Below, one piece after another: positions 1 to 11,381 of a DNA stretch of 24,000 bases (the stretch's first letter is position 1; every line of letters starts with the position of its first letter). The notes below the pieces were generated by a model. That model was not told the DNA's origin, made no database searches, and saw only the letters and a program-made list of their open reading frames with translations. The position numbers and the translations under genes were made by a program. The stretch comes from Marinilactibacillus piezotolerans (lineage in GTDB: Bacteria; Bacillota; Bacilli; Lactobacillales; Carnobacteriaceae_A), in the NCBI RefSeq assembly GCF_900114235.1, contig NZ_FOSJ01000026.1, positions 1 through 24,000 of the forward strand, read 5' to 3'.

Positions 1-15
1 CCTGAATAATTCATA
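1..15. repeat. IS left terminal inverted repeat (IRL)
   Basis: CCTGAATAATTCATA is a perfect reverse-complement match to 1665-1679. Confidence 0.85.
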
Positions 16-157
16 CTTTTTAATTGAAACCGTCTGAAACTGCCTAACGGCAGTCTGATAATTACTTTTTTATTTTCACCCCTTAAGTGATGAAAAAAGA
101 ACCCCATTCTGCTATGGTAAAGGTGACGAAACCAACCATAAGAAAGGAGTTCTTCTC

Positions 158-1477
158 ATGACTAGATTACACGAAAATCAAGTTAAATTCAATTCAAATA
201 TCACTATTTCACATACTGGTGGTCGTCTATCAAGTGATTCGGGGTTAGTCCTGGTTAAAGAATTGATGAATACCTTCGGCTTTTCACAATTAGCTAAACA
301 ATGGCTCCATATCACAGATCATCGGGCTTATTTTACCCATCATAACTTAGCGATATTGGAACAGCTTATTATGCAGTTAATTGCTGGTTACTCGGCAGAC
401 TCATCAGCTAATCTATTAAGACAGGATCCAGTCTTTCAAGCTGTACTCGGTAAAAAGCAGTTGGCCTCACAATCGTCAATCTCACGGTTTCTGGATCGTT
501 TCACCGAGGAGAACATCGATCAACTCCAAGCATTAAATCAGTCGCTGATTAATAAAGCGCGTTTGATTCGCAATGATACCGAGTTAATCATTGATGTCGA
601 TTCCACACATTCGGATACCTTTGGACGCCAAGAACAAACAGATTATAATGCCCATTATCAAACCTACGGCTATCACCCATTAGTTGCCTTTGACGGACTG
701 ACCGGAGATTTCTTAAAAGCTGAACTGCGTTCAGGCAATCAGTACACATCTAAAGGGGTAAAAGCTTTTATCGCCCCGCTGTTATACCAATACAAGAGCA
801 CGTTACCTCATACCGAGATATTGGTTCGGGGGGACAGCGGCTTCGCCACACCAGAGGTGTATGAGTCTTGTGAAGCAACTGAAAGCCAGTACGTTATCCG
901 ATTAAAGAGCAATCGGAGGTTAAGTCAGTTAGCTGAACACTCTGTTCTTTACGGGGACAATCAAGAATGGGAAGAGCGAGAAGTGCAGTATTTTTCACTA
1001 CCTTATCAAGCACAATCCTGGTCGAAACCCCGTCGTGTCTGTATACGTTCCGTCCGTGAAGGAGGAGAATTGCTTTTTCATCATGCGTTTATTGTGACTA
1101 ATCTATCCGACAACGTCTCGCCTGAAGTCATATTTTCTCTTTACGGCAAGCGTGGAACAATGGAAAATTTCATCAAAGAAGCGAAAGGTGGCTTTTACTT
1201 CGATAAAACAGATAGCCCGCGTTTCTTAGAAAATCATGTCAGAATGATGATCAGTGTCCTTGCATACAACCTCGTCAATTTTTTAAAAACCATTGGTTTT
1301 GATAAAGTGAACCAGGGCATGACGATCCATTCCATCCGGCTGACATTGCTTAAAGTAGCCGGTAAACTTGTTCAAACTGGGAGACAGGTCTATCTCAAAC
1401 TGTCAAGCTATCATGTGTATCAAACTGAATTTTATAAGGTTTTTGAACGCCTGCGGCGATCCAAACAATGGATTTAG
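158..1477 (+). CDS. IS1380-family DDE transposase
   Basis: 439 aa. SD AAGGAG lies about 8 nt upstream of the ATG. Acidic-triad contexts are present: IIDVDSTHSD, VRGDSGFATPE and MENFIKEAKGGF. Size and N-terminal sequence (SHTGGRLSSDSGL) are typical of IS1380/ISSpn5-like transposases. Confidence 0.9.
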   Translation: MTRLHENQVKFNSNITISHTGGRLSSDSGLVLVKELMNTFGFSQLAKQWLHITDHRAYFTHHNLAILEQLIMQLIAGYSADSSANLLRQDPVFQAVLGKKQLASQSSISRFLDRFTEENIDQLQALNQSLINKARLIRNDTELIIDVDSTHSDTFGRQEQTDYNAHYQTYGYHPLVAFDGLTGDFLKAELRSGNQYTSKGVKAFIAPLLYQYKSTLPHTEILVRGDSGFATPEVYESCEATESQYVIRLKSNRRLSQLAEHSVLYGDNQEWEEREVQYFSLPYQAQSWSKPRRVCIRSVREGGELLFHHAFIVTNLSDNVSPEVIFSLYGKRGTMENFIKEAKGGFYFDKTDSPRFLENHVRMMISVLAYNLVNFLKTIGFDKVNQGMTIHSIRLTLLKVAGKLVQTGRQVYLKLSSYHVYQTEFYKVFERLRRSKQWI

Positions 1478-1664
1478 ACTAGTTATCACACAAATTTTTA
1501 AACCGATTTTTTTCAAGGGATTCGTCTGCCCTTAAATAGACAAATTTTTTTATTATGACCTTCTTCCGTAGGCATCCTGTTCGAAAACACATTATTTTGG
1601 AAGGAAGTATCTGCCTAATTTAAAAATGGGCAATTTCTTCAAAAAAAAAGCTTGAATTTAGATC

Positions 1665-1679
1665 TATGAATTATTCAGG
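1665..1679. repeat. IS right terminal inverted repeat (IRR)
   Basis: TATGAATTATTCAGG is the reverse complement of 1-15. It contains the ATG (1666-1668) that the ORF track uses as the start of the downstream ORF. Confidence 0.85.
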
Positions 1680-2904
1680 TAAAAATATAAATTTAAAAAA
1701 ATTATCTAAATCAGAAAAGCTAATATATCATGCAAGTCAATTTTATAGTAATAAGCTACTAGGATACATTGAAGGTGATAATGATCCTGAAAGTCAATAC
1801 AAAAAGTTATCTTGTTTATTGGATCTGTTTTTAAGTAATTTTAAATTAATGTATATTGAAACAGATGAAATTAATGAAGCATTTGTTATTTTCGAAACAT
1901 TGAATGCTAGAGGTAAAGATTTAGAAACTTCTGATCTTTTAAAAAATCATGTTTTTAGATCTTCAAATAACAAAATCAAGATTATAAAAGTTCAATGGAA
2001 CCAAGTTATAGAGAATTTAGGAAATGTTGATCCAACAAGATTTATCAGACATTATTGGAATTCGCAACATAAATTTGTTAGAGAAAAAGATTTATATAAA
2101 GGTATTCGAAAAGCTATTAATACGCCTAAAAAAGTTGAAGATTTGATGGAAGATTTAGTTGGACTTTCTGATTTATATACATCCTTAAGCTATCCTGAAA
2201 ATTTTGTTTATTTTGAAAATTCTACTTTAATTGAACGTACAAAAGAGATCAGTAATTTGGGAGCAAGTTCTTATTTCCCAATTATGCTAGCACTAGAGAA
2301 CGAAAAGTATGACGAAATTGACATAGATAAAATAATGGAAAGTATTGAATGCTTAATAGTTAGAAACTTTGTAGTAGCAGGAAAAACAGCTAATAAATTC
2401 GAAGTTGAATTTGCAAAAATTGCATATCAAATTACGCAACATCAATTTGATGAAATAGATGAAATTTTAAGTGCTATAAAAAATTTGACTATTAATGATG
2501 ATGAATTCAGTAATGACTTTAAAATTTTCACTACTAAAAAAACCAATACTATTAGATATATATTAAGAAAGGTTCATAATAATTCTAATACTGAAACTAG
2601 AATAATCAATGATAACAATACAATACACATAGAACATATTATGCCTAAAAAAACGCAACATTGGGATATATCTAAAGACTTGCATGATGAATATCTGTGG
2701 AAATTAGGAAATCTGACATTGTTAGGACATGAATACAATTGAAGCGCCACCAATAGTAACTTTGAATTAAAAAAAGATGTTTACAGACAGTCTGATATAC
2801 CTATGACTCAAAACTTGATTGAATACAAAGATTGGACTATTAAAGACATAGAAGAGAGACAAGAATCTTTTATTGATGTTGCACTACAAATTTGGAAAAA
2901 ATAA
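1680..2904 (+). pseudogene. GmrSD-like DUF262/DUF1524 type IV restriction-family gene, 5'-truncated by the IS and carrying an in-frame TGA at 2740-2742
   Basis: The translation contains the DUF262 C-terminal motif FVIFETLNARGKDLETSDLLKN and the DUF1524 His-Me finger motif HIEHIMPK...LGNLTLL. The N-terminal DUF262 core (DGQQR region) is missing. The first five codons (MNYSG) derive from the IS IRR. After TGA the same frame continues for 53 codons (SATNSNFELKKDVY...QIWKK) to TAA at 2902-2904. Confidence 0.8.
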
Positions 2905-3049
2905 ACATTCATTCTTTGTTATATCACTTAAGATAATATAAGAAGATCATTTTAAAGCATGTAGTTTTCATAAATAGCACTAAGATGAGTGAAATTTGTA
3001 TGTGATGTGTTAACATCTGTAAATCTATTTATAAGAGGAGCAAATACTT

Positions 3050-3565
3050 ATGAATTTTAAATCTGTCGATTCACTGCAACCTATAGTAAATGTAATTAAC
3101 GAAACTAACCAGGCTGTTCAAGACAAATCAAGAACGATGATAGACAGCCCATTATCTGACATGGTATCCGGAGCTTTAGGAGCGGGTATTGGGGGAGCAG
3201 TTTCTTTTGCCGGCTTATACGGGCTAGGTACTGTTGGATTGAGTGCAGTTGGTATCACATCTGGATTAGCTACGGCAGGAAGTATCGTTGGTGGAGGAAT
3301 GGTATCCGGAGTTTTTGTATTGGCGGCTCCAGTTGCAATTATTGCTGGAGGTGGGATTGCATTAAATGCTAAACGAAAAAAAAATAAATTAAAAAGAGAA
3401 AAGGAACGGCTTTACCAGGAAGCTTTAAAAAAACATAATGCAGTGATTGAAGCTTTAAAGGAAGAAGTAAATGCAACAAATGATAGGATGGAATACTTGA
3501 ATGGATTAAACATTTTATTACAACAAGCGATTAAGGAACTAAGGTCAGATTTAGAGGGAGTCTAA
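3050..3565 (+). CDS. Small membrane protein with a glycine-zipper TM region and a C-terminal coiled coil; no recognised family
   Basis: 171 aa. SD AGAGGAG lies 9 nt upstream. Residues ~38-105 are Gly/Ala-rich hydrophobic (GALGAGIGGAVSFAGLYGLGTVGLSAVGITSGLATAGSIVGGGMVSGVFVLAAPVAIIAGGGIAL) with repeated GxxxG. A basic stop-transfer stretch follows (KRKKNKLKREKER), then a heptad-like helical tail. Confidence 0.7.
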   Translation: MNFKSVDSLQPIVNVINETNQAVQDKSRTMIDSPLSDMVSGALGAGIGGAVSFAGLYGLGTVGLSAVGITSGLATAGSIVGGGMVSGVFVLAAPVAIIAGGGIALNAKRKKNKLKREKERLYQEALKKHNAVIEALKEEVNATNDRMEYLNGLNILLQQAIKELRSDLEGV

Positions 3566-4927
3566 ATGAAAAAGTATCAATATTCCGAATCAGAGAAAGA
3601 ACTAAATAAAGTTTTGCATTATCATGATAATGTTTTAAACAGCATTCCTTCTCTTAATCCAAATAAAATAAAAATGGGTCAAAACATCGCTTCAAGTGAA
3701 GAGCTGCTAAAGAAATTAAGTTTTAGTCAGCAAGTTTGTGAGATGGGCAGTAATTTATCTCATACAGAAAAGAAAATAAAAATCTCAAATCTTCGATCTT
3801 GGGACGAGATATTAAAAGATGCTCATAACTTGGTACCTGATGAAGTAGATTTACAGTCATTGTTTATAGAAGAAGAATTACAATCCAACGAACGGTACAT
3901 AAATCAATTAAGAAATGACTTCAATTCTCTTAATAAGTTGGATGAGACTGACTATTTAATTTGTGTTGCTGCAGGTATTCTAGCCGCATCAGTTGATATC
4001 TTTTTAGATGGGATTCCTAAAAAAACAAAAGAAGGTGTCACAGCTGGACCGTTGTCTGATTACATTCGAAATAAATTTGATGAAGCGATTCCTCAAGAAA
4101 AAATAAAAGAGTTGGAAAGAAAGTTTAAAGTTCCTTATGATCTATCAACGAATTATAAATTAGATGAATATGTTGATGGATTGAGTAGTTGGTTTCACAG
4201 GTATCATTCGCTTGGTCATGATCCAATATTAGGATTTGTTTTTGGAGTGTTTGATGTGATGACGGGCAGATTTAGTGCGATAGACAAAAAAGGAAAAGTA
4301 ATTTCACAAATCTTATCTGATGTACCCGAAGGTATTGATATATTTCAAGCTATTGGTAAAGTTTTTGGTCATATGAAATCTGACGTCAATACTTCCATGG
4401 GTTTACCAGCTCCTTTGATGACTTTATTTAATATGTTTCAATTTGGAAAAATAGAAAAAGAGAAGTTAACTATTGCAGAAGTTGCAAGAGGAATGTATGC
4501 ACAAGGTTACGATTTTAAACATTTCTGTTCGATGTCTATATCCACTATGATTATTGAAGTGGTTGTCAGATTGTCTTATTGTATAAAGAGATTAAACGAA
4601 GGTTACAGTTTAAAAGACTCTATTCCAGTAAATGGATTTGGTAGGAAATTGCCTAAATTGCAGACAATGCTTTTTATAGCCCATTCCATAAATACAGCTT
4701 CTAATGCCGGAAAAATTTACTTTACAAAGAATCCATTAGCTATTAATTATACAGAATGGCTAGCCTTTACTAAATACTCTGTTTCGCAATTAAAATGGAC
4801 ACTTCGTGATAAACCGGTACTTAGAGATCAGTATGTAGAAAGTAAACTTCTAGAGGAATGGAATGATCTTCAGTCGGTAATTAATGATATGTGGACAGCA
4901 ACAGAAGAAGATTATATAGTTCTTTAA
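3566..4927 (+). CDS. Hypothetical 453-aa protein with hydrophobic segments; no recognisable family
   Basis: The ATG abuts the upstream stop (TAAATG). SD GAGGGAG sits inside the end of the upstream gene, indicating translational coupling. It has a hydrophobic segment (LICVAAGILAASVDIFL) and several amphipathic or hydrophobic stretches. Possible His-containing motifs are HRYHSLGHDP and GHMKSD. Confidence 0.65.
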   Translation: MKKYQYSESEKELNKVLHYHDNVLNSIPSLNPNKIKMGQNIASSEELLKKLSFSQQVCEMGSNLSHTEKKIKISNLRSWDEILKDAHNLVPDEVDLQSLFIEEELQSNERYINQLRNDFNSLNKLDETDYLICVAAGILAASVDIFLDGIPKKTKEGVTAGPLSDYIRNKFDEAIPQEKIKELERKFKVPYDLSTNYKLDEYVDGLSSWFHRYHSLGHDPILGFVFGVFDVMTGRFSAIDKKGKVISQILSDVPEGIDIFQAIGKVFGHMKSDVNTSMGLPAPLMTLFNMFQFGKIEKEKLTIAEVARGMYAQGYDFKHFCSMSISTMIIEVVVRLSYCIKRLNEGYSLKDSIPVNGFGRKLPKLQTMLFIAHSINTASNAGKIYFTKNPLAINYTEWLAFTKYSVSQLKWTLRDKPVLRDQYVESKLLEEWNDLQSVINDMWTATEEDYIVL

Positions 4928-6027
4928 TCGTAAAACGTTTAGTGGGACTACTAAGTATAACAATCAATCAGTTTGCTGTAGACAGTATGATTGAGCTGAA
5001 GAAGTCATATGAGTTACTTAAAAATCGTTTAGGAAGAATTCCTTATCTAAGAGATTTTGAAGAACAACAGACTTTAGATCCAGTATTGATTGCAGGGAAG
5101 AAGCATAATTATTATGGATTTTTAGATGCAATAAAAGAGAGCGAAAGAGAACTCAGTAAAGAAACATCAGCTTATTTAACCTTTGCTACAAGAGAGCTAT
5201 TAACGGGTATAAGAAGACATGAATTAATTTTGATGCTTAAACTGATTAATGAGCCAAATAAATTGTTTACGGTAGCTGAATTAAAACAATTCTTTTATGA
5301 TCGCGGATTATTAAATGACGAAGAAACGATTAATTCAGTCATACGTACGCTTGATTTGAGCTTCTTTACTGGTCAAGAAGCTAAAACATATAAAGGTTCT
5401 GAGATAATCGAGTTTCAAGGTGAAGAAATAGGTTTAACAATTGAATTCAAAGAGGCACTCAAGAATGAATACTTTGTCAAATTAATTAAAGATACGCTAA
5501 TAACGAGTAAGTTAAAGTCCAAACTATTTGATCAAACGACTCCATTGACCAGATTTCAGAAGTATCGTCGTAAAGATGTTATCAGGTTACTAAAGTGGGA
5601 ACAGCAGATGATCAATCAGAATATTGGTGGTTACACAGATTTCAAAGACCAGTTTGTTATTTTCGTTACGCTGGAAAAAGGGGACGACTTTGCAGGTGCT
5701 CAAATGGCGTATGAAGATGAGCTGCTAGATGCTTCCACCATGAAGTGGTTCACAAAAGCACCACGAACCCTAAACTCCCCAGAAGTTATCAAGCTGAAAA
5801 ATTCAGACGACTATGATATTCGTGTGTTCGTTAAAAAGTCAGATGATGAAGGATCGGATTTCTACTATTTAGGAGAAGTAAAACCGAAGCTGGATACCAT
5901 CACGCAATTAAAGAAACCAGACAGTAATGGTCACATGAAAAAAGTTGTCGAGATGCAGCTGGAATTTTTGCAGCCAATTGAAACTAAATTGTATCGCTAT
6001 TTGCAGTTTAATATCAACAATGTATAA
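4891..6027 (+). CDS. DUF3427-type protein lacking the usual N-terminal helicase/nuclease modules (start uncertain: GTG 4891, GTG 4942 or ATG 4987)
   Basis: The C-terminal ~250 aa (…RFQKYRRKDVIRLL…FVIFVTLEKGDDFAGAQMAYEDELLDASTMKWFTKAPRTLNSPEV…DFYYLGEV) resembles, from memory, the DUF3427 domain found at the C terminus of ResIII/DEAD helicase defence-island proteins. None of the candidate starts has a convincing SD. The frame opens at 4888 and overlaps the upstream gene in the -1 frame. Confidence 0.6.
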   Translation: MDSNRRRLYSSLIVKRLVGLLSITINQFAVDSMIELKKSYELLKNRLGRIPYLRDFEEQQTLDPVLIAGKKHNYYGFLDAIKESERELSKETSAYLTFATRELLTGIRRHELILMLKLINEPNKLFTVAELKQFFYDRGLLNDEETINSVIRTLDLSFFTGQEAKTYKGSEIIEFQGEEIGLTIEFKEALKNEYFVKLIKDTLITSKLKSKLFDQTTPLTRFQKYRRKDVIRLLKWEQQMINQNIGGYTDFKDQFVIFVTLEKGDDFAGAQMAYEDELLDASTMKWFTKAPRTLNSPEVIKLKNSDDYDIRVFVKKSDDEGSDFYYLGEVKPKLDTITQLKKPDSNGHMKKVVEMQLEFLQPIETKLYRYLQFNINNV

Positions 6028-6070
6028 GTAAAGTAAGTATAGGGTATAGGCAAAAGGAGATAAAACTATA

Positions 6071-6985
6071 TTGGTAAATGACCTTGTAAAACAGGAACTA
6101 GATGGAGTGAAATTTAAGCTAAGAGCCAAAGAAGATTTTTCATTTTTAAGTCAATTTGGGAAAGTTTTTTGCGTTTTTGACCAGAATGATTCTGGGAATA
6201 TAAGTTTTGGAGTAATCAATAATAAACTAGAAAAGTTCTTTATAAAAGTAGCTGGAGCTCAAACGCTTGAGTTTGCTGGTAATACTAATGAAGCAGTTGA
6301 AGCATTGAAAAATACTATAGAGATTTATTCAGATTTAAAACACCCTAGTTTAATTAATATGATTTCATCTGGTGATTATAACAATCTATTTTATATTGTA
6401 TTTCGTTGGGCAGAAGGGGATTGTTTATATGATCACTGGAACTTTGATTACTATCATAATCATCCGGAAGTAGAGTCGCCTAGAAAAAGATTTGCTAAAA
6501 TATCGAATGAAGATAAGCTTGAAACAGCGAAACAGATTCTTGAATTCATGGCATTTGTTGAATCAAAAGGATATGTAGCTGTTGATTTTTATGATGGAAG
6601 TTTGATGTATGACTTCAAAAGCAATCAACTAACCATCTGCGATATTGATCTGTTTAAAAAAAGTCCAGTACTAAATGACATAGGTTCAGACTACTGGGGA
6701 ACAAAAAGAATGAAAGCGCCAGAGGAATATCATCTGAATGCAATAATAGATTCAAGAACAAATGTGTTTACTATAGGTGCATTATTTTTCAATCTATTTG
6801 GAAATTACTCAGGTGAACTATTGCGACAAATCTATACGGAAAATAAATTTATACCTTTAGAAGAAAAAAATTGGGCATTATCTTCAGACTTGTATAATGT
6901 AGCATTGGATGCAGTAAAAGAAGAGCCTGAAAAACGATATGCTACTGTTAAAGAATTTAAAGATGAATGGATTAATAAAGCATAA
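6071..6985 (+). CDS. Stand-alone eukaryotic-like Ser/Thr protein kinase-fold protein (Stk2-like candidate)
   Basis: 304 aa with a TTG start and SD AAAGGAG about 12 nt upstream. Kinase subdomain-like motifs are present: FFIKVAG (VAIK Lys), LKHPSLINM, catalytic-loop-like YVAVDFYDGSLMYD, DFG-like ICDIDLF, APE-like MKAPEE, TNVFTIGALFFNLF (subdomain IX) and EKRYATVKEF (subdomain XI). There are no PASTA, TM or other domains. Confidence 0.7.
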   Translation: MVNDLVKQELDGVKFKLRAKEDFSFLSQFGKVFCVFDQNDSGNISFGVINNKLEKFFIKVAGAQTLEFAGNTNEAVEALKNTIEIYSDLKHPSLINMISSGDYNNLFYIVFRWAEGDCLYDHWNFDYYHNHPEVESPRKRFAKISNEDKLETAKQILEFMAFVESKGYVAVDFYDGSLMYDFKSNQLTICDIDLFKKSPVLNDIGSDYWGTKRMKAPEEYHLNAIIDSRTNVFTIGALFFNLFGNYSGELLRQIYTENKFIPLEEKNWALSSDLYNVALDAVKEEPEKRYATVKEFKDEWINKA

Positions 6986-7003
6986 TTTTATAATTAATGA
7001 AAT

Positions 7004-7043
7004 ACCCAATTTACTATTAAAGTAGGTTGGGTGTTTTTATTTT
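7004..7043 (+). terminator. Rho-independent terminator closing the 3050-6985 block
   Basis: The stem is ACCCAATTTACT (7004-7015) paired with AGTAGGTTGGGT (7021-7032), with G-U pairs and a 5-nt loop, followed by GTTTTTATTTT. Confidence 0.7.
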
Positions 7044-7169
7044 CATTGTAGAATCTTAAGATAAATATTTCACTTCAAATTATTTGGGTGCAGATCATGT
7101 CCCCCGTTATCCTTTCGATTACGATATACTATGGTTACAATCAATCTTGGCCAGGGGAGATTAAATAAA

Positions 7170-7964
7170 ATGGAAAATAACAGATTGAATTTGATTTACA
7201 AGTTGAATCATATTGCCAATGAGTTAGAAGTCGGAACTGTAGAATATGAATTAGCAAGATTTTTCTTAGAGAACTTTAAAAGCGTTAACAAATGGAATAT
7301 CTATCAAATTGCAGAAGACAATAATGTATCAAGGGCATCAGTTCGCAGATTCGCTAAGCAACTAGGCTATGCAAACTTTTCAGATATGAAAGCTCATGTT
7401 CAGGAGTTTGATGACGGGATCAATGATTTTCAACAATTCTATGGGGTAGAGGGCTTCTTAGATGTATTAGTCTCAAACATTCAGGCTTTGATGAAAGAGC
7501 TGAGTATCCGAATGAATACGCAGGAAGTGGATCGATTAAATAAACTCATCAATGAAAATAAAGAAGTCATTATTTTCACTTCCAGTAATATCGCAGGTTT
7601 AGTGAAGACATTTCAGCAGCGAATGATTATTTTTGGTAAGAGAATTACTTTGTTGACTGAGCTGGATGATTTGAAAAAATTTAAAAATGTGAAAGAAAAA
7701 CCACTGATTATTGTCGTTTCAATTTCTGGACTTTTGCTTTCAACGATCCTATCCGAACTCAGAGAGATCAATGCTACAAAAATATTATTTACAAACAATC
7801 GTAACCCGATTTACAATCAGGATTTCGACAAACTTTATCATTTGAGTTCGCAGCATCATGAAAGTGATATAAACGATTTGCTTTATTACACCTATGGAAT
7901 CAATTTTGTATTAGATCTGTTATTCAATGGATATTTAATGAAGTATAAAAGGGAAGGAATTTAA
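7170..7964 (+). CDS. MurR/RpiR-family transcriptional regulator (HTH_6 + SIS domain)
   Basis: The N-terminal HTH VSRASVRRFAKQLGYANFSDMK is typical of RpiR. The C-terminal region is SIS-like (EVIIFTSSNIAG…LIIVVSISG). I prefer ATG 7170 (SD GGGGAG 11 nt upstream) to the track start at 7131. Confidence 0.8.
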   Translation: MENNRLNLIYKLNHIANELEVGTVEYELARFFLENFKSVNKWNIYQIAEDNNVSRASVRRFAKQLGYANFSDMKAHVQEFDDGINDFQQFYGVEGFLDVLVSNIQALMKELSIRMNTQEVDRLNKLINENKEVIIFTSSNIAGLVKTFQQRMIIFGKRITLLTELDDLKKFKNVKEKPLIIVVSISGLLLSTILSELREINATKILFTNNRNPIYNQDFDKLYHLSSQHHESDINDLLYYTYGINFVLDLLFNGYLMKYKREGI

Positions 7965-7966
7965 TT

Positions 7967-9424
7967 ATGCATTATAAAGAGAATCCTACATTTCCAAAAG
8001 ATTTTTTATGGGGCGCTTCAAGCGCTGCCTGGCAAGTTGAAGGAGCAGTAGCAGAGGACGGACGTGCTCCGGCAATTATTGATTTAAATAGTAAAAAGAA
8101 AAAACCGTACGCTGATAATTCAATTGCTTCAGATCATTACCATTTTTATAAAGAAGATGTGCAATTGATGAAAGAAGCTGGATTCACTTCGTATAGATTC
8201 TCTATTGCTTGGCCTAGAATTTATCCAGATAACTCAGGTGTGCCCAATCAATTGGGAATCGACTTTTACAATAATCTAATCGATGAATTGATCGATAATG
8301 GTATTACACCAATTGTCACTTTATATCATTATGATATGCCAGTTTGGGTCGATAAAGAATTTAACGGGTGGTATGACCGTGGAATCATAGATGCGTTTGA
8401 TCAGTATGTTAGAACGTGTTTCAACGAATTTGGGGACCGCGTTAAGTATTGGCTAGCGATCAACGAACAGAATATGCAAATCGTCTATGGTGACTGGTTA
8501 GGTGTCTGTAAATACCCAGAAACCTGGTTCAAAGATAAATGGAAAGTAAACCATATCATGAATCTATGTCACTCAAAAGCGGTTATTGCTTGTCATGAAT
8601 TGGTAGAAGGCGGAAAGATCGGTCCTGTTCCGGGAATGGTTCCTTTCTATCCAGAATCTGCTAATCCCCAGGACCAAATTGCCGCAATGAATGCGGAAGA
8701 ATTGACTGAAAAAATCTGGAACGACTTCAATGCAAACCGAGAATATAACGGCTTCATTAAACGTTACTGGAAAGAACATGACATTGATCCAGATATTCGC
8801 CCTGGGGATATGGAATTAGTTGCGCAGGCAGAAATTGATTTCTTTGGAATCAACTGTTACAGAAGTAACGTAGCCAAAGCTTCTCCAGCGGATTCTGAGT
8901 ATCAGGAAATCGGCTTGAATAAATCAGGTGAAAAGGGTAATTTCGTTTATCCAAACTATCCAGGAATCTTTGAACAAACGAATAATCCATTTGTTGAAAC
9001 AACTGACTGGGATTGGGAAATTGACCCAGTAGCGATGCGTTATCTTTTAAGATATATGGAAGATCACTATCACTTGCCAATGGTTATTACAGAAAACGGC
9101 TATGGAGCGCATGAAACATTAGGGGAAGATGGGAAAGTTCATGACGAAGAACGAATCAAATTCCTTAAAGAAAACATTTATCAAATTGGACTAGCCATCG
9201 AAGATGGAGCAAAAGTTTTCGGCTATAATCCTTGGTCATTCACAGACTTATTAAGTACAGGGAACGGAATGGCTAAACGATACGGATTAGTTTATATCAA
9301 TACAACAGATGAAGATGTACTGGACTTGAAACGAATCAAGAAGGATTCATACTACTGGTATAAAGAAGTCATCGCTTCTAATGGCGCAAAAGTAAGTGAA
9401 GAAACAATTGATTTTTCAGAATGA
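7967..9424 (+). CDS. Glycoside hydrolase family 1, 6-phospho-beta-glucosidase
   Basis: 485 aa. GH1 signatures are present: FLWGASSAAWQVEG, TLYHYDMP, acid/base INEQN, nucleophile ITENG, and C-terminal NPWSFTDLLS…KRYGLVYI, which is typical of phospho-beta-glucosidases. Confidence 0.9.
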   Translation: MHYKENPTFPKDFLWGASSAAWQVEGAVAEDGRAPAIIDLNSKKKKPYADNSIASDHYHFYKEDVQLMKEAGFTSYRFSIAWPRIYPDNSGVPNQLGIDFYNNLIDELIDNGITPIVTLYHYDMPVWVDKEFNGWYDRGIIDAFDQYVRTCFNEFGDRVKYWLAINEQNMQIVYGDWLGVCKYPETWFKDKWKVNHIMNLCHSKAVIACHELVEGGKIGPVPGMVPFYPESANPQDQIAAMNAEELTEKIWNDFNANREYNGFIKRYWKEHDIDPDIRPGDMELVAQAEIDFFGINCYRSNVAKASPADSEYQEIGLNKSGEKGNFVYPNYPGIFEQTNNPFVETTDWDWEIDPVAMRYLLRYMEDHYHLPMVITENGYGAHETLGEDGKVHDEERIKFLKENIYQIGLAIEDGAKVFGYNPWSFTDLLSTGNGMAKRYGLVYINTTDEDVLDLKRIKKDSYYWYKEVIASNGAKVSEETIDFSE

Positions 9425-9506
9425 TTATAGAAAACTGTAATGTAATTTAAAATAAAGTATGGCAGTTAAGTGTAAAAACATTTAGCTGCTGTGCTGATCG
9501 CTTATA

Positions 9507-9520
9507 TGTAAACGATTACT
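9507..9520. promoter_or_regulatory. Candidate CcpA catabolite-responsive element (cre)
   Basis: TGTAAACGATTACT matches the cre consensus TGWAANCGNTNWCA at most positions but ends CT rather than CA. It lies about 20 nt upstream of the PTS gene SD. Confidence 0.4.
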
Positions 9521-9530
9521 TTGAGGGTGA

Positions 9531-11381
<1,851 letters not shown>

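Follow-up and report, generated by a model that had tools for sequence, protein, structure and literature searches.

Within the first 24,000 nucleotides of contig NZ_FOSJ01000026.1 of Marinilactibacillus piezotolerans (RefSeq assembly GCF_900114235.1, forward strand; hereafter the window), four neighboring genes had been proposed, from a reading of the sequence alone, to form one undescribed abortive-infection system with a kinase as its sensor. Our analysis indicates that this block is probably a mosaic that arose as cargo was exchanged at a defense-island hotspot beside a backbone kinase gene. It is made up of three unrelated pieces: a membrane pair related to the anti-phage system Bunzi (genes 1 and 2), the recognition end of a broken restriction enzyme (gene 3), and a chromosomal kinase (gene 4). 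What is new at this locus would be limited to a widespread Bunzi variant lacking the TerB domain and to a retained stand-alone recognition domain.

The distribution of the four genes in other genomes carries this interpretation. We scanned for homologs of gene 2, which are BnzB-like proteins, using one genome per species, and obtained 80 loci from Firmicutes, Actinobacteria, and others, whose neighbors were considered within 7 kb. A scan of metagenomes for the DUF3427 target-recognition domain (TRD) of gene 3, for which we used alignment A4 of closer sequences, alignment A3 being too divergent, gave another 80 loci. Homologs of gene 3 or gene 4 occur in none of the BnzB-like loci, and homologs of genes 1, 2, or 4 occur in none of the TRD loci. 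Failure of the four genes to occur together outside this genome had been named beforehand as a result that would speak against a single system, and because no co-occurrence is seen in these related loci, the four-gene claim is largely refuted. A false lead is thereby removed, since the four genes do not amount to a new kinase-based defense system.

A gene pair of the Bunzi family

Gene 2 encodes the 453-residue protein that the sequence-only reading could place in no family. It is a full-length homolog of BnzB, matching the PADLOC profile (E = 1.8e-66) over positions 29–500 of 504 and the verified BnzB of Ligilactobacillus animalis with 27% identity over 372 residues (E = 3e-26); the verified reference sequences were taken from the supplement of Millman et al. 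Bunzi is a two-gene system in which BnzA carries a TerB domain, transmembrane (TM) helices, and a lipid-interacting region (Millman et al., bioRxiv 10.1101/2022.05.11.491447), and it was verified as a defense system from L. animalis DSM 20602 in B. subtilis (Millman et al. 2022). The gene 2 product is predicted to be mostly helical, with a single hydrophobic helix at residues ≈128–151 in the hydropathy profile, and the family alignment contains an invariant His/Asp-rich core (HRxxSLGHDP ... H..SD ... GLPAP ... GYDFxHF). A profile search of PDB sequences for remote homologs of gene 2 gave no matches at E ≤ 1, and PHROGs and NCBIfam returned nothing for genes 2 and 3.

Gene 1 had been described as a glycine-zipper membrane protein, and this description is borne out. 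A conserved N-terminal region of ≈40 residues is followed by a Gly/Ala-rich, hydrophobic glycine-zipper membrane segment (residues ≈40–106; peak Kyte–Doolittle score 2.2) that matches the TM region of BnzA, then by a basic stretch and a C-terminal coiled coil. The match to the PADLOC BnzA profile is weak (E = 2e-8) and covers only positions 311–419 of 544, and alignment with L. animalis BnzA extends only over the glycine-zipper segment and the next helix (LYQEALKKH versus LLQEAIKRH). The TerB domain has no Pfam match in gene 1 at E ≤ 0.1 and is found in none of 82 partner proteins from related loci. The pair thus has a BnzB homolog, the TM helices of BnzA, and an adjacent, co-oriented arrangement with the membrane protein first, and lacks TerB. 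Although the block had been said to match no named system, genes 1 and 2 match Bunzi, and on this sequence evidence they are best classified as a self-contained two-gene module of that family, in a variant without TerB.

Gene 2 homologs of about 453 aa number in the thousands, and clustering at 50% identity divides the BnzB superfamily into 1,347 clusters (E ≤ 1e-3). Members of the Bacillus cereus group and Veillonella encode a 171–182-aa protein and then a 452–454-aa protein, without DUF3427 or kinase. A gene 1 homolog lies upstream of BnzB in 78 of the 80 BnzB-like loci, overlapping it by 4 nt in 18; these partner proteins are 171–254 aa long (mode 181–185), 60–65% identical to gene 1, and conserved over their whole length. 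In two representative proteins of ≈620 aa, P0306 and P0309, a gene 1-like N terminus is naturally fused to BnzB, which supports physical cooperation of the gene 1 and gene 2 proteins. Adjacency, fusion proteins, and purifying selection on both genes together show that genes 1 and 2 are coupled.

Both fusions keep the N-terminal and coiled-coil parts but have a seemingly degenerate glycine-zipper stretch, which hints at the regions of gene 1 that contact BnzB. About a third of the BnzB-like loci have an extra small open reading frame (ORF) between partner and BnzB (among them L025, L030, L032, L034, L035, L052, and L084), 100–130 aa long in the scan of 80 loci and 71–130 aa overall; L106 (3789–4004) and L107 (3784–4014) also have it. 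This ORF encodes one TM segment and a KEREKNxLYQEAxxKH coiled coil and is a paralog of the C-terminal half of gene 1.

The module is also mobile and defense-associated. It is present on 479 plasmids and, as a full-length copy, in two temperate phages, and this large TerB-less, short-partner form extends to enterobacterial conjugative plasmids, Firmicutes plasmids, and temperate phages; on an Enterobacter conjugative plasmid (L108), for example, a 165-aa “membrane protein” is encoded a few nucleotides upstream of the BnzB homolog. In a random sample of 40 BnzB-like loci, 148 neighbor proteins match 96 PADLOC families, including type I/II methyltransferases, AbiEii, and PDC candidates. Only about a fifth of the PADLOC BnzA model aligns with the short partner, and the pair might therefore escape annotation tools. 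In the temperate Streptococcus phage phi-SsuFJNP8_rum of S. suis (L106; record 53776–58894), the BnzB-like module adjoins Tet(M), a defense-type module and a resistance gene being carried together.

Membership of genes 1 and 2 in an anti-phage family, whose likely effector is a membrane protein, agrees with the initial suggestion that membrane proteins of the block could be effectors. The pair might instead have another role, for instance as a membrane-stress module or as an addiction or competition module of mobile elements. Such a role would suit a module that rides on plasmids and phages and for which defense genes make up only some of the neighbors; a predicted lactococcal Bunzi gave no protection against the phages tested (PMC11381338), and no experimental evidence, including any phage-defense phenotype, is known for the TerB-less form. 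We nevertheless consider a role outside defense unlikely, given the homology to a verified defense system, the adjoining McrBC, type I restriction-modification, and GmrSD genes, and the contrast between 96 PADLOC families from 148 neighbor proteins here and 4 from 39 in the kinase control.

In the mechanism that we infer for the module, BnzB would be a sensor or regulator, bound to the coiled coil and the conserved N terminus of its partner. On infection, it would release or activate the glycine-zipper segment, and the membrane would be permeabilized, resulting in abortive infection; canonical Bunzi is thought to act similarly through the TerB-containing BnzA. We word this conditionally because the structural model of gene 2 is poor: AlphaFold2, run with a 24-sequence alignment, gave a pLDDT of 56.9 and a pTM of 0.37, and a Foldseek search of this model against the PDB returned nothing (best TM-score about 0.1, E > 0.1). 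The literature consulted on Bunzi yielded no mechanism beyond “membrane surveillance,” and TerB has been the sole functional clue. Because a widespread form does without TerB, the core machinery may be the glycine-zipper/coiled-coil protein together with BnzB.

The recognition domain encoded by gene 3

Gene 3 is the TRD left from a SauUSI-type type IV (modification-dependent) restriction enzyme through loss of the PLD nuclease and helicase (about 605 codons). Its product contains DUF8090 and DUF3427 domains (Pfam DUF3427, E = 7.7e-69) and aligns with residues 624–951 of the 953-residue SauUSI structure 7CLG (E = 6.4e-41). In SauUSI, the C-terminal region is the TRD for 5-methylcytosine (5mC) and 5-hydroxymethylcytosine (5hmC) (PMC6765204), and the gene 3 product may still bind 5mC/5hmC DNA. 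The C-terminal DUF3427 TRD of SauUSI is therefore present in gene 3, and the N-terminal PLD nuclease and SF2 helicase/ATPase motor are not. Most database relatives of gene 3 also contain Helicase_C, which gene 3 lacks, and no PLD or helicase ORF was found elsewhere in the window, in keeping with the original description of a DUF3427-type gene without its usual helicase.

Several comparisons locate the truncation. The gene 3 ORF begins at SauUSI-equivalent residue ≈620, and BLASTP homology to the proteins P0242 and P0262 begins at ORF residue 24, which corresponds to the middle of those proteins. In most complete cases among the 80 TRD loci, the TRD forms the C terminus of a 940–1037-aa ORF. 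The closest relative of gene 3 (contig L109, 85% identical) is the C terminus of a PLD-helicase-TRD ORF of at least 954 aa, and in blastn, window positions 4963–6010 correspond to L109 5977–7024, so that homology sets in 36 nt past the gene 2 stop codon.

Genes 1–3 are shared with M. psychrotolerans as a cassette, a single 2,978-bp blastn block of 91% nucleotide identity (L015 9471–12446) that leaves the kinase outside. Its surroundings differ in M. psychrotolerans, where type I restriction-modification genes, McrBC, and an insertion sequence (IS) are found. Between the two copies, the ratio of nonsynonymous to synonymous divergence (dN/dS) stands at 0.11, 0.18, and 0.16 for genes 1, 2, and 3, respectively. 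Gene 3 had been thought to overlap gene 2, but the overlap is only a mechanical extension of the ORF: the M. psychrotolerans copy has a 2-bp indel at 4932, positions 4942–4986 evolve neutrally (dN/dS about 1), and the start at ATG 4987 is conserved, so we place the true start at this codon, with a 59-nt gap to gene 2. No ribosome-binding site (RBS) precedes ATG 4987. The dN/dS of 0.16 applies from this codon onward, after the truncation, and rules out a decaying pseudogene.

Two further sequence features accompany gene 3. A promoter-like TGGACA-17-TATAGT (10 of 12 matches) at 4892–4920, inside the 3′ end of gene 2, is kept in M. psychrotolerans (L015 11327–11355) and could drive gene 3 independently. 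In that species, gene 3 is followed by a strong 20-bp bidirectional terminator hairpin (L015 12570–12615).

Genes 1–3 might accordingly be regarded as a three-gene system, with the stand-alone SauUSI-type TRD co-opted to sense modified DNA and so set off the Bunzi-like membrane module. The shared block comprises exactly these genes in two species and in different contexts, gene 3 has been under selection since its truncation, both copies keep the promoter-like sequence, gene 3 is followed by the strong terminator in M. psychrotolerans, and the window offers gene 3 no PLD-helicase partner. A DUF3427 gene is, however, missing from all 80 BnzB-like loci and from the B. cereus, Veillonella, plasmid, and phage loci, just as BnzB is missing from all 80 TRD loci. 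The junction, with no RBS before the start codon, resembles an accidental truncation within a domain, and joint transfer could reflect mere physical linkage over a short time (dS 0.2–0.5). We hold a three-gene system to be improbable; were it real, a cassette moving between Marinilactibacillus species would represent a new sensor-effector pairing born of accidental gene truncation.

On the mosaic interpretation, a SauUSI-type gene has lost its PLD nuclease and helicase parts by replacement, and the remnant starts at an internal Met. Purifying selection has kept it since the truncation, and it travels with genes 1 and 2 in two Marinilactibacillus species. The locus documents defense-island turnover: a restriction gene gave up its nuclease and motor to an incoming cassette, and selection continued to act on the orphan recognition domain.

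The kinase gene and the surrounding island

Gene 4 encodes a stand-alone Hanks-type kinase (Pfam Pkinase, E = 5.4e-9), as had been recognized at the outset, and aligns to Stk1 of S. aureus (4EQM); its product is 100% identical to an NCBI protein from M. piezotolerans. Across 22 kinase homologs, K59, D172, D191/D193, P217, E218, and E219 are invariant and A216 is nearly so, so that the catalytic Lys, the catalytic-loop Asp, the metal-binding Asp, and the APE motif of Hanks-type kinases are all present. The catalytic loop of the family is atypical, reading DFYDGS for HRD-L-K-x-x-N, without the usual Lys and Asn. The family also has an invariant C-D-I-D motif.

The genomic setting of gene 4 points to a backbone gene. 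From the kinase through a GGDEF gene, two ABC transporter genes, MarR, and a metallophosphatase, the window is collinear with M. kalidii (L020), in which the sugar operon and the entire island are missing. The kinase is solo in seven of the eight contexts examined. Relatives at 48–61% identity stand among housekeeping genes in Enterococcus (L009), Oscillospiraceae (L012), and two metagenomic organisms (L102, L104), with a further solo case in M. kalidii. The 39 neighbors of solo kinases match four PADLOC families (mad3, AriA, mad8, AbiLi), with no restriction-modification match. Gene order and homology indicate that gene 4 is a vertically inherited gene of the chromosomal backbone, at the island edge and outside the cassette. 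The kinase adjoins sugar-utilization genes in three of the eight contexts (the window, L009, and L012); we considered a link to sugar metabolism and treat the association as coincidence. The sugar operon of the window is itself an insertion/deletion polymorphism of the backbone, for in M. kalidii the kinase and the GGDEF gene have no such operon between them.

The idea of a single four-gene abortive-infection system, in which the kinase would be the sensor or a signaling enzyme, draws on the common strand, the tight spacing, the single terminator, the adjacency of genes 3 and 4 in contig L101, and weak PADLOC matches of the kinase to PD-T4-6, mad6, and MkoA. These matches (E about 1e-8 to 1e-12; PD-T4-6 at best 1.9e-8 versus 5.4e-9 for Pfam Pkinase) are comparable in strength to generic kinase similarity, and in the five solo contexts the kinase homologs lie among housekeeping genes, not in defense islands as PD-T4-6 membership would imply. 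With no co-occurrence in 160 related loci, a kinase collinear with the M. kalidii backbone and outside the shared cassette, and relatives that are solo among housekeeping genes, we regard such a system as extremely unlikely.

Genes 3 and 4 are nevertheless adjacent in a second case. In L101, a kinase 78% identical to gene 4, with its RBS and TTG start conserved, has a gene 3 homolog (90% identical) directly upstream, and the synonymous divergence (dS) from the window is similar for the two genes (1.47 and 1.24). L101 overlaps L109 at 95% identity over 530 bp, which joins a full-length SauUSI-like gene to the kinase. Most likely, the kinase of the ancestor had a full-length SauUSI-type gene beside it. 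In the lineage of M. piezotolerans and M. psychrotolerans, other cargo, including the Bunzi-like pair, would have taken the place of the 5′ two-thirds of this gene and of all that lay upstream of it. Upstream of the SauUSI-like gene, L109 (984–4165) encodes a Mrr-like nuclease (336 aa), a GIY-YIG protein (274 aa) whose C terminus resembles UzuA of Uzume, and a NUDIX protein; these appear to be different defense cargo at the same hotspot.

Such adjacency raises the alternative that genes 3 and 4 are a functional pair, ancestrally a SauUSI-like enzyme and a kinase, with one perhaps regulating the other. Adjacency, spacing, RBS, and TTG start are indeed kept between the window and L101 across a dS of about 1.3, with strong purifying selection acting on each gene. 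The kinase is, however, present in none of the 80 SauUSI-type loci, its relatives at 48–61% identity never adjoin DUF3427, and gene 3 of M. psychrotolerans has no kinase in the 550 bp of sequence available; gene order within a genus is, moreover, commonly kept without a functional link. We judge a functional pair to be very unlikely. Placement of the kinase in a mobile gene 3–gene 4 unit was also considered and judged less likely, given the synteny with M. kalidii and the absence of co-occurrence in 80 loci.

The layout of the block (Table 1) agrees in most respects with its first description: four ORFs lie on the + strand, the gene 1 stop is directly joined to the gene 2 start (gtcTAAATGaaa, TAAATG; RBS, GAGGGAG), gene 4 starts 43 nt past gene 3 with a TTG behind an AAGGAGA RBS, and a single terminator follows. 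A search for terminators within the block found no terminator-like site between genes 3 and 4, and none in the rest of the block save a weak 5-bp stem inside gene 1. The terminator after gene 4 ends the kinase transcripts and any read-through from genes 1–3. In this genome, gene 4 may be transcribed by read-through from the island, and it would have no part in the module.

The defense-island position is also confirmed. Upstream, an IS-disrupted GmrSD-type gene had been reported, and its damage is plain: the match to PADLOC HEC-06 (E = 1.2e-107) covers only profile positions 149–503 of 558, the N terminus having been removed by the IS, and the ATG with which the ORF seems to start (1666) falls within the right inverted repeat. 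An in-frame TGA at 2740–2742 follows, with the frame open for another 54 codons to 2905. Because of IS truncation and nonsense mutation, the gene is dead twice over, and it lacks the intact N- and C-terminal domains of GmrSD. The IS transposase (158–1477) is of the DDE_Tnp_1_4 family (Pfam PF13701, E = 6.7e-158), and the first letter of the window is the exact start of the left inverted repeat of the IS. The sugar operon downstream is unrelated to the block, as originally stated. Exact-sequence look-ups of the window proteins returned the same locus only.

Table 1. Positions of the block, the shared cassette, and the flanking features in the window
Feature	Position	Strand	Remarks
Insertion sequence	1..1679	+	Marks the left island edge within the window; 28-nt terminal inverted repeats 1–28 and 1652–1679
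GmrSD/HEC-06-type type IV restriction gene, dead	1680..2905	+	PADLOC HEC-06, Pfam GmrSD_N/GmrSD_C
Three-gene cassette	3036..6013	+	From gene 1 RBS to 14 nt before gene 3 stop; blastn
Gene 1 ORF	3050–3565	+	171 aa
Gene 2 ORF	3566–4927	+	453 aa
Gene 3 ORF as called mechanically	4891–6027	+	From conserved start ATG 4987, 4987..6027, 346 aa
Recombination breakpoint	4960..4963		Full-length SauUSI-type homology starts here, about codon 606 of the full-length gene
Gene 4 ORF	6071–6985	+	304 aa, TTG start
Intrinsic terminator	6999..7047	+	Hairpin of 17 pairs and T-run (6999–7037)
RpiR / GH1 / PTS-EIIBCA sugar operon	7131..11381	+	Downstream; unrelated to block

A number of observations weigh against the mosaic interpretation. 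Purifying selection on gene 3 and its movement with genes 1 and 2 are unlike the behavior of a useless remnant. Because L101 is a second case with similar dS for both genes, the adjacency of genes 3 and 4 is old within a narrow clade, and no terminator comes between the two. The ancestral arrangement was pieced together through a 530-bp overlap of contigs that come from different datasets. For the module itself, the 80 BnzB loci are the best-scoring ones (44–67% identity) and sample only this subfamily; the inactive lactococcal Bunzi and the absence of a known phenotype for the TerB-less form bear on its assignment to defense, and the poor model of gene 2 bears on the proposed mechanism.

Comparison with known systems

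Gene 4 resembles PD-T4-6 and other stand-alone Ser/Thr-kinase defense genes in size and in consisting of one Hanks-type kinase domain. Its similarity to PD-T4-6 is only at the level of kinases in general (E about 1e-8), however, and its family is mostly solo among housekeeping genes, syntenic within the genus, and marked by the DFYDGS loop. Gene 3 covers the whole C-terminal TRD of SauUSI (residues 624–951 of 7CLG), but it arose by 5′ truncation and has neither the PLD nuclease nor the helicase/ATPase, nor such a partner in the window. Split SauUSI-like systems with a separate specificity protein exist (Lutz et al. 2019, PMC6765204), and gene 3 resembles these in having the DUF3427 recognition domain as a protein of its own. 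A PLD-helicase gene adjoins the recognition gene in those systems, whereas here the neighbors are BnzB and the kinase.

Bunzi is the system to which the block comes closest. Gene 1, at 171 aa versus about 546 aa for BnzA, lacks the roughly 300-aa N-terminal region that carries TerB, BnzB is only 27% identical, and a third of the related loci have the extra small TM/coiled-coil paralog. The two systems nonetheless share a two-gene operon with the membrane protein first and a full-length BnzB second, the glycine-zipper TM segment and LYQEALKKH-type helix from the C-terminal part of BnzA, and a defense-island context.

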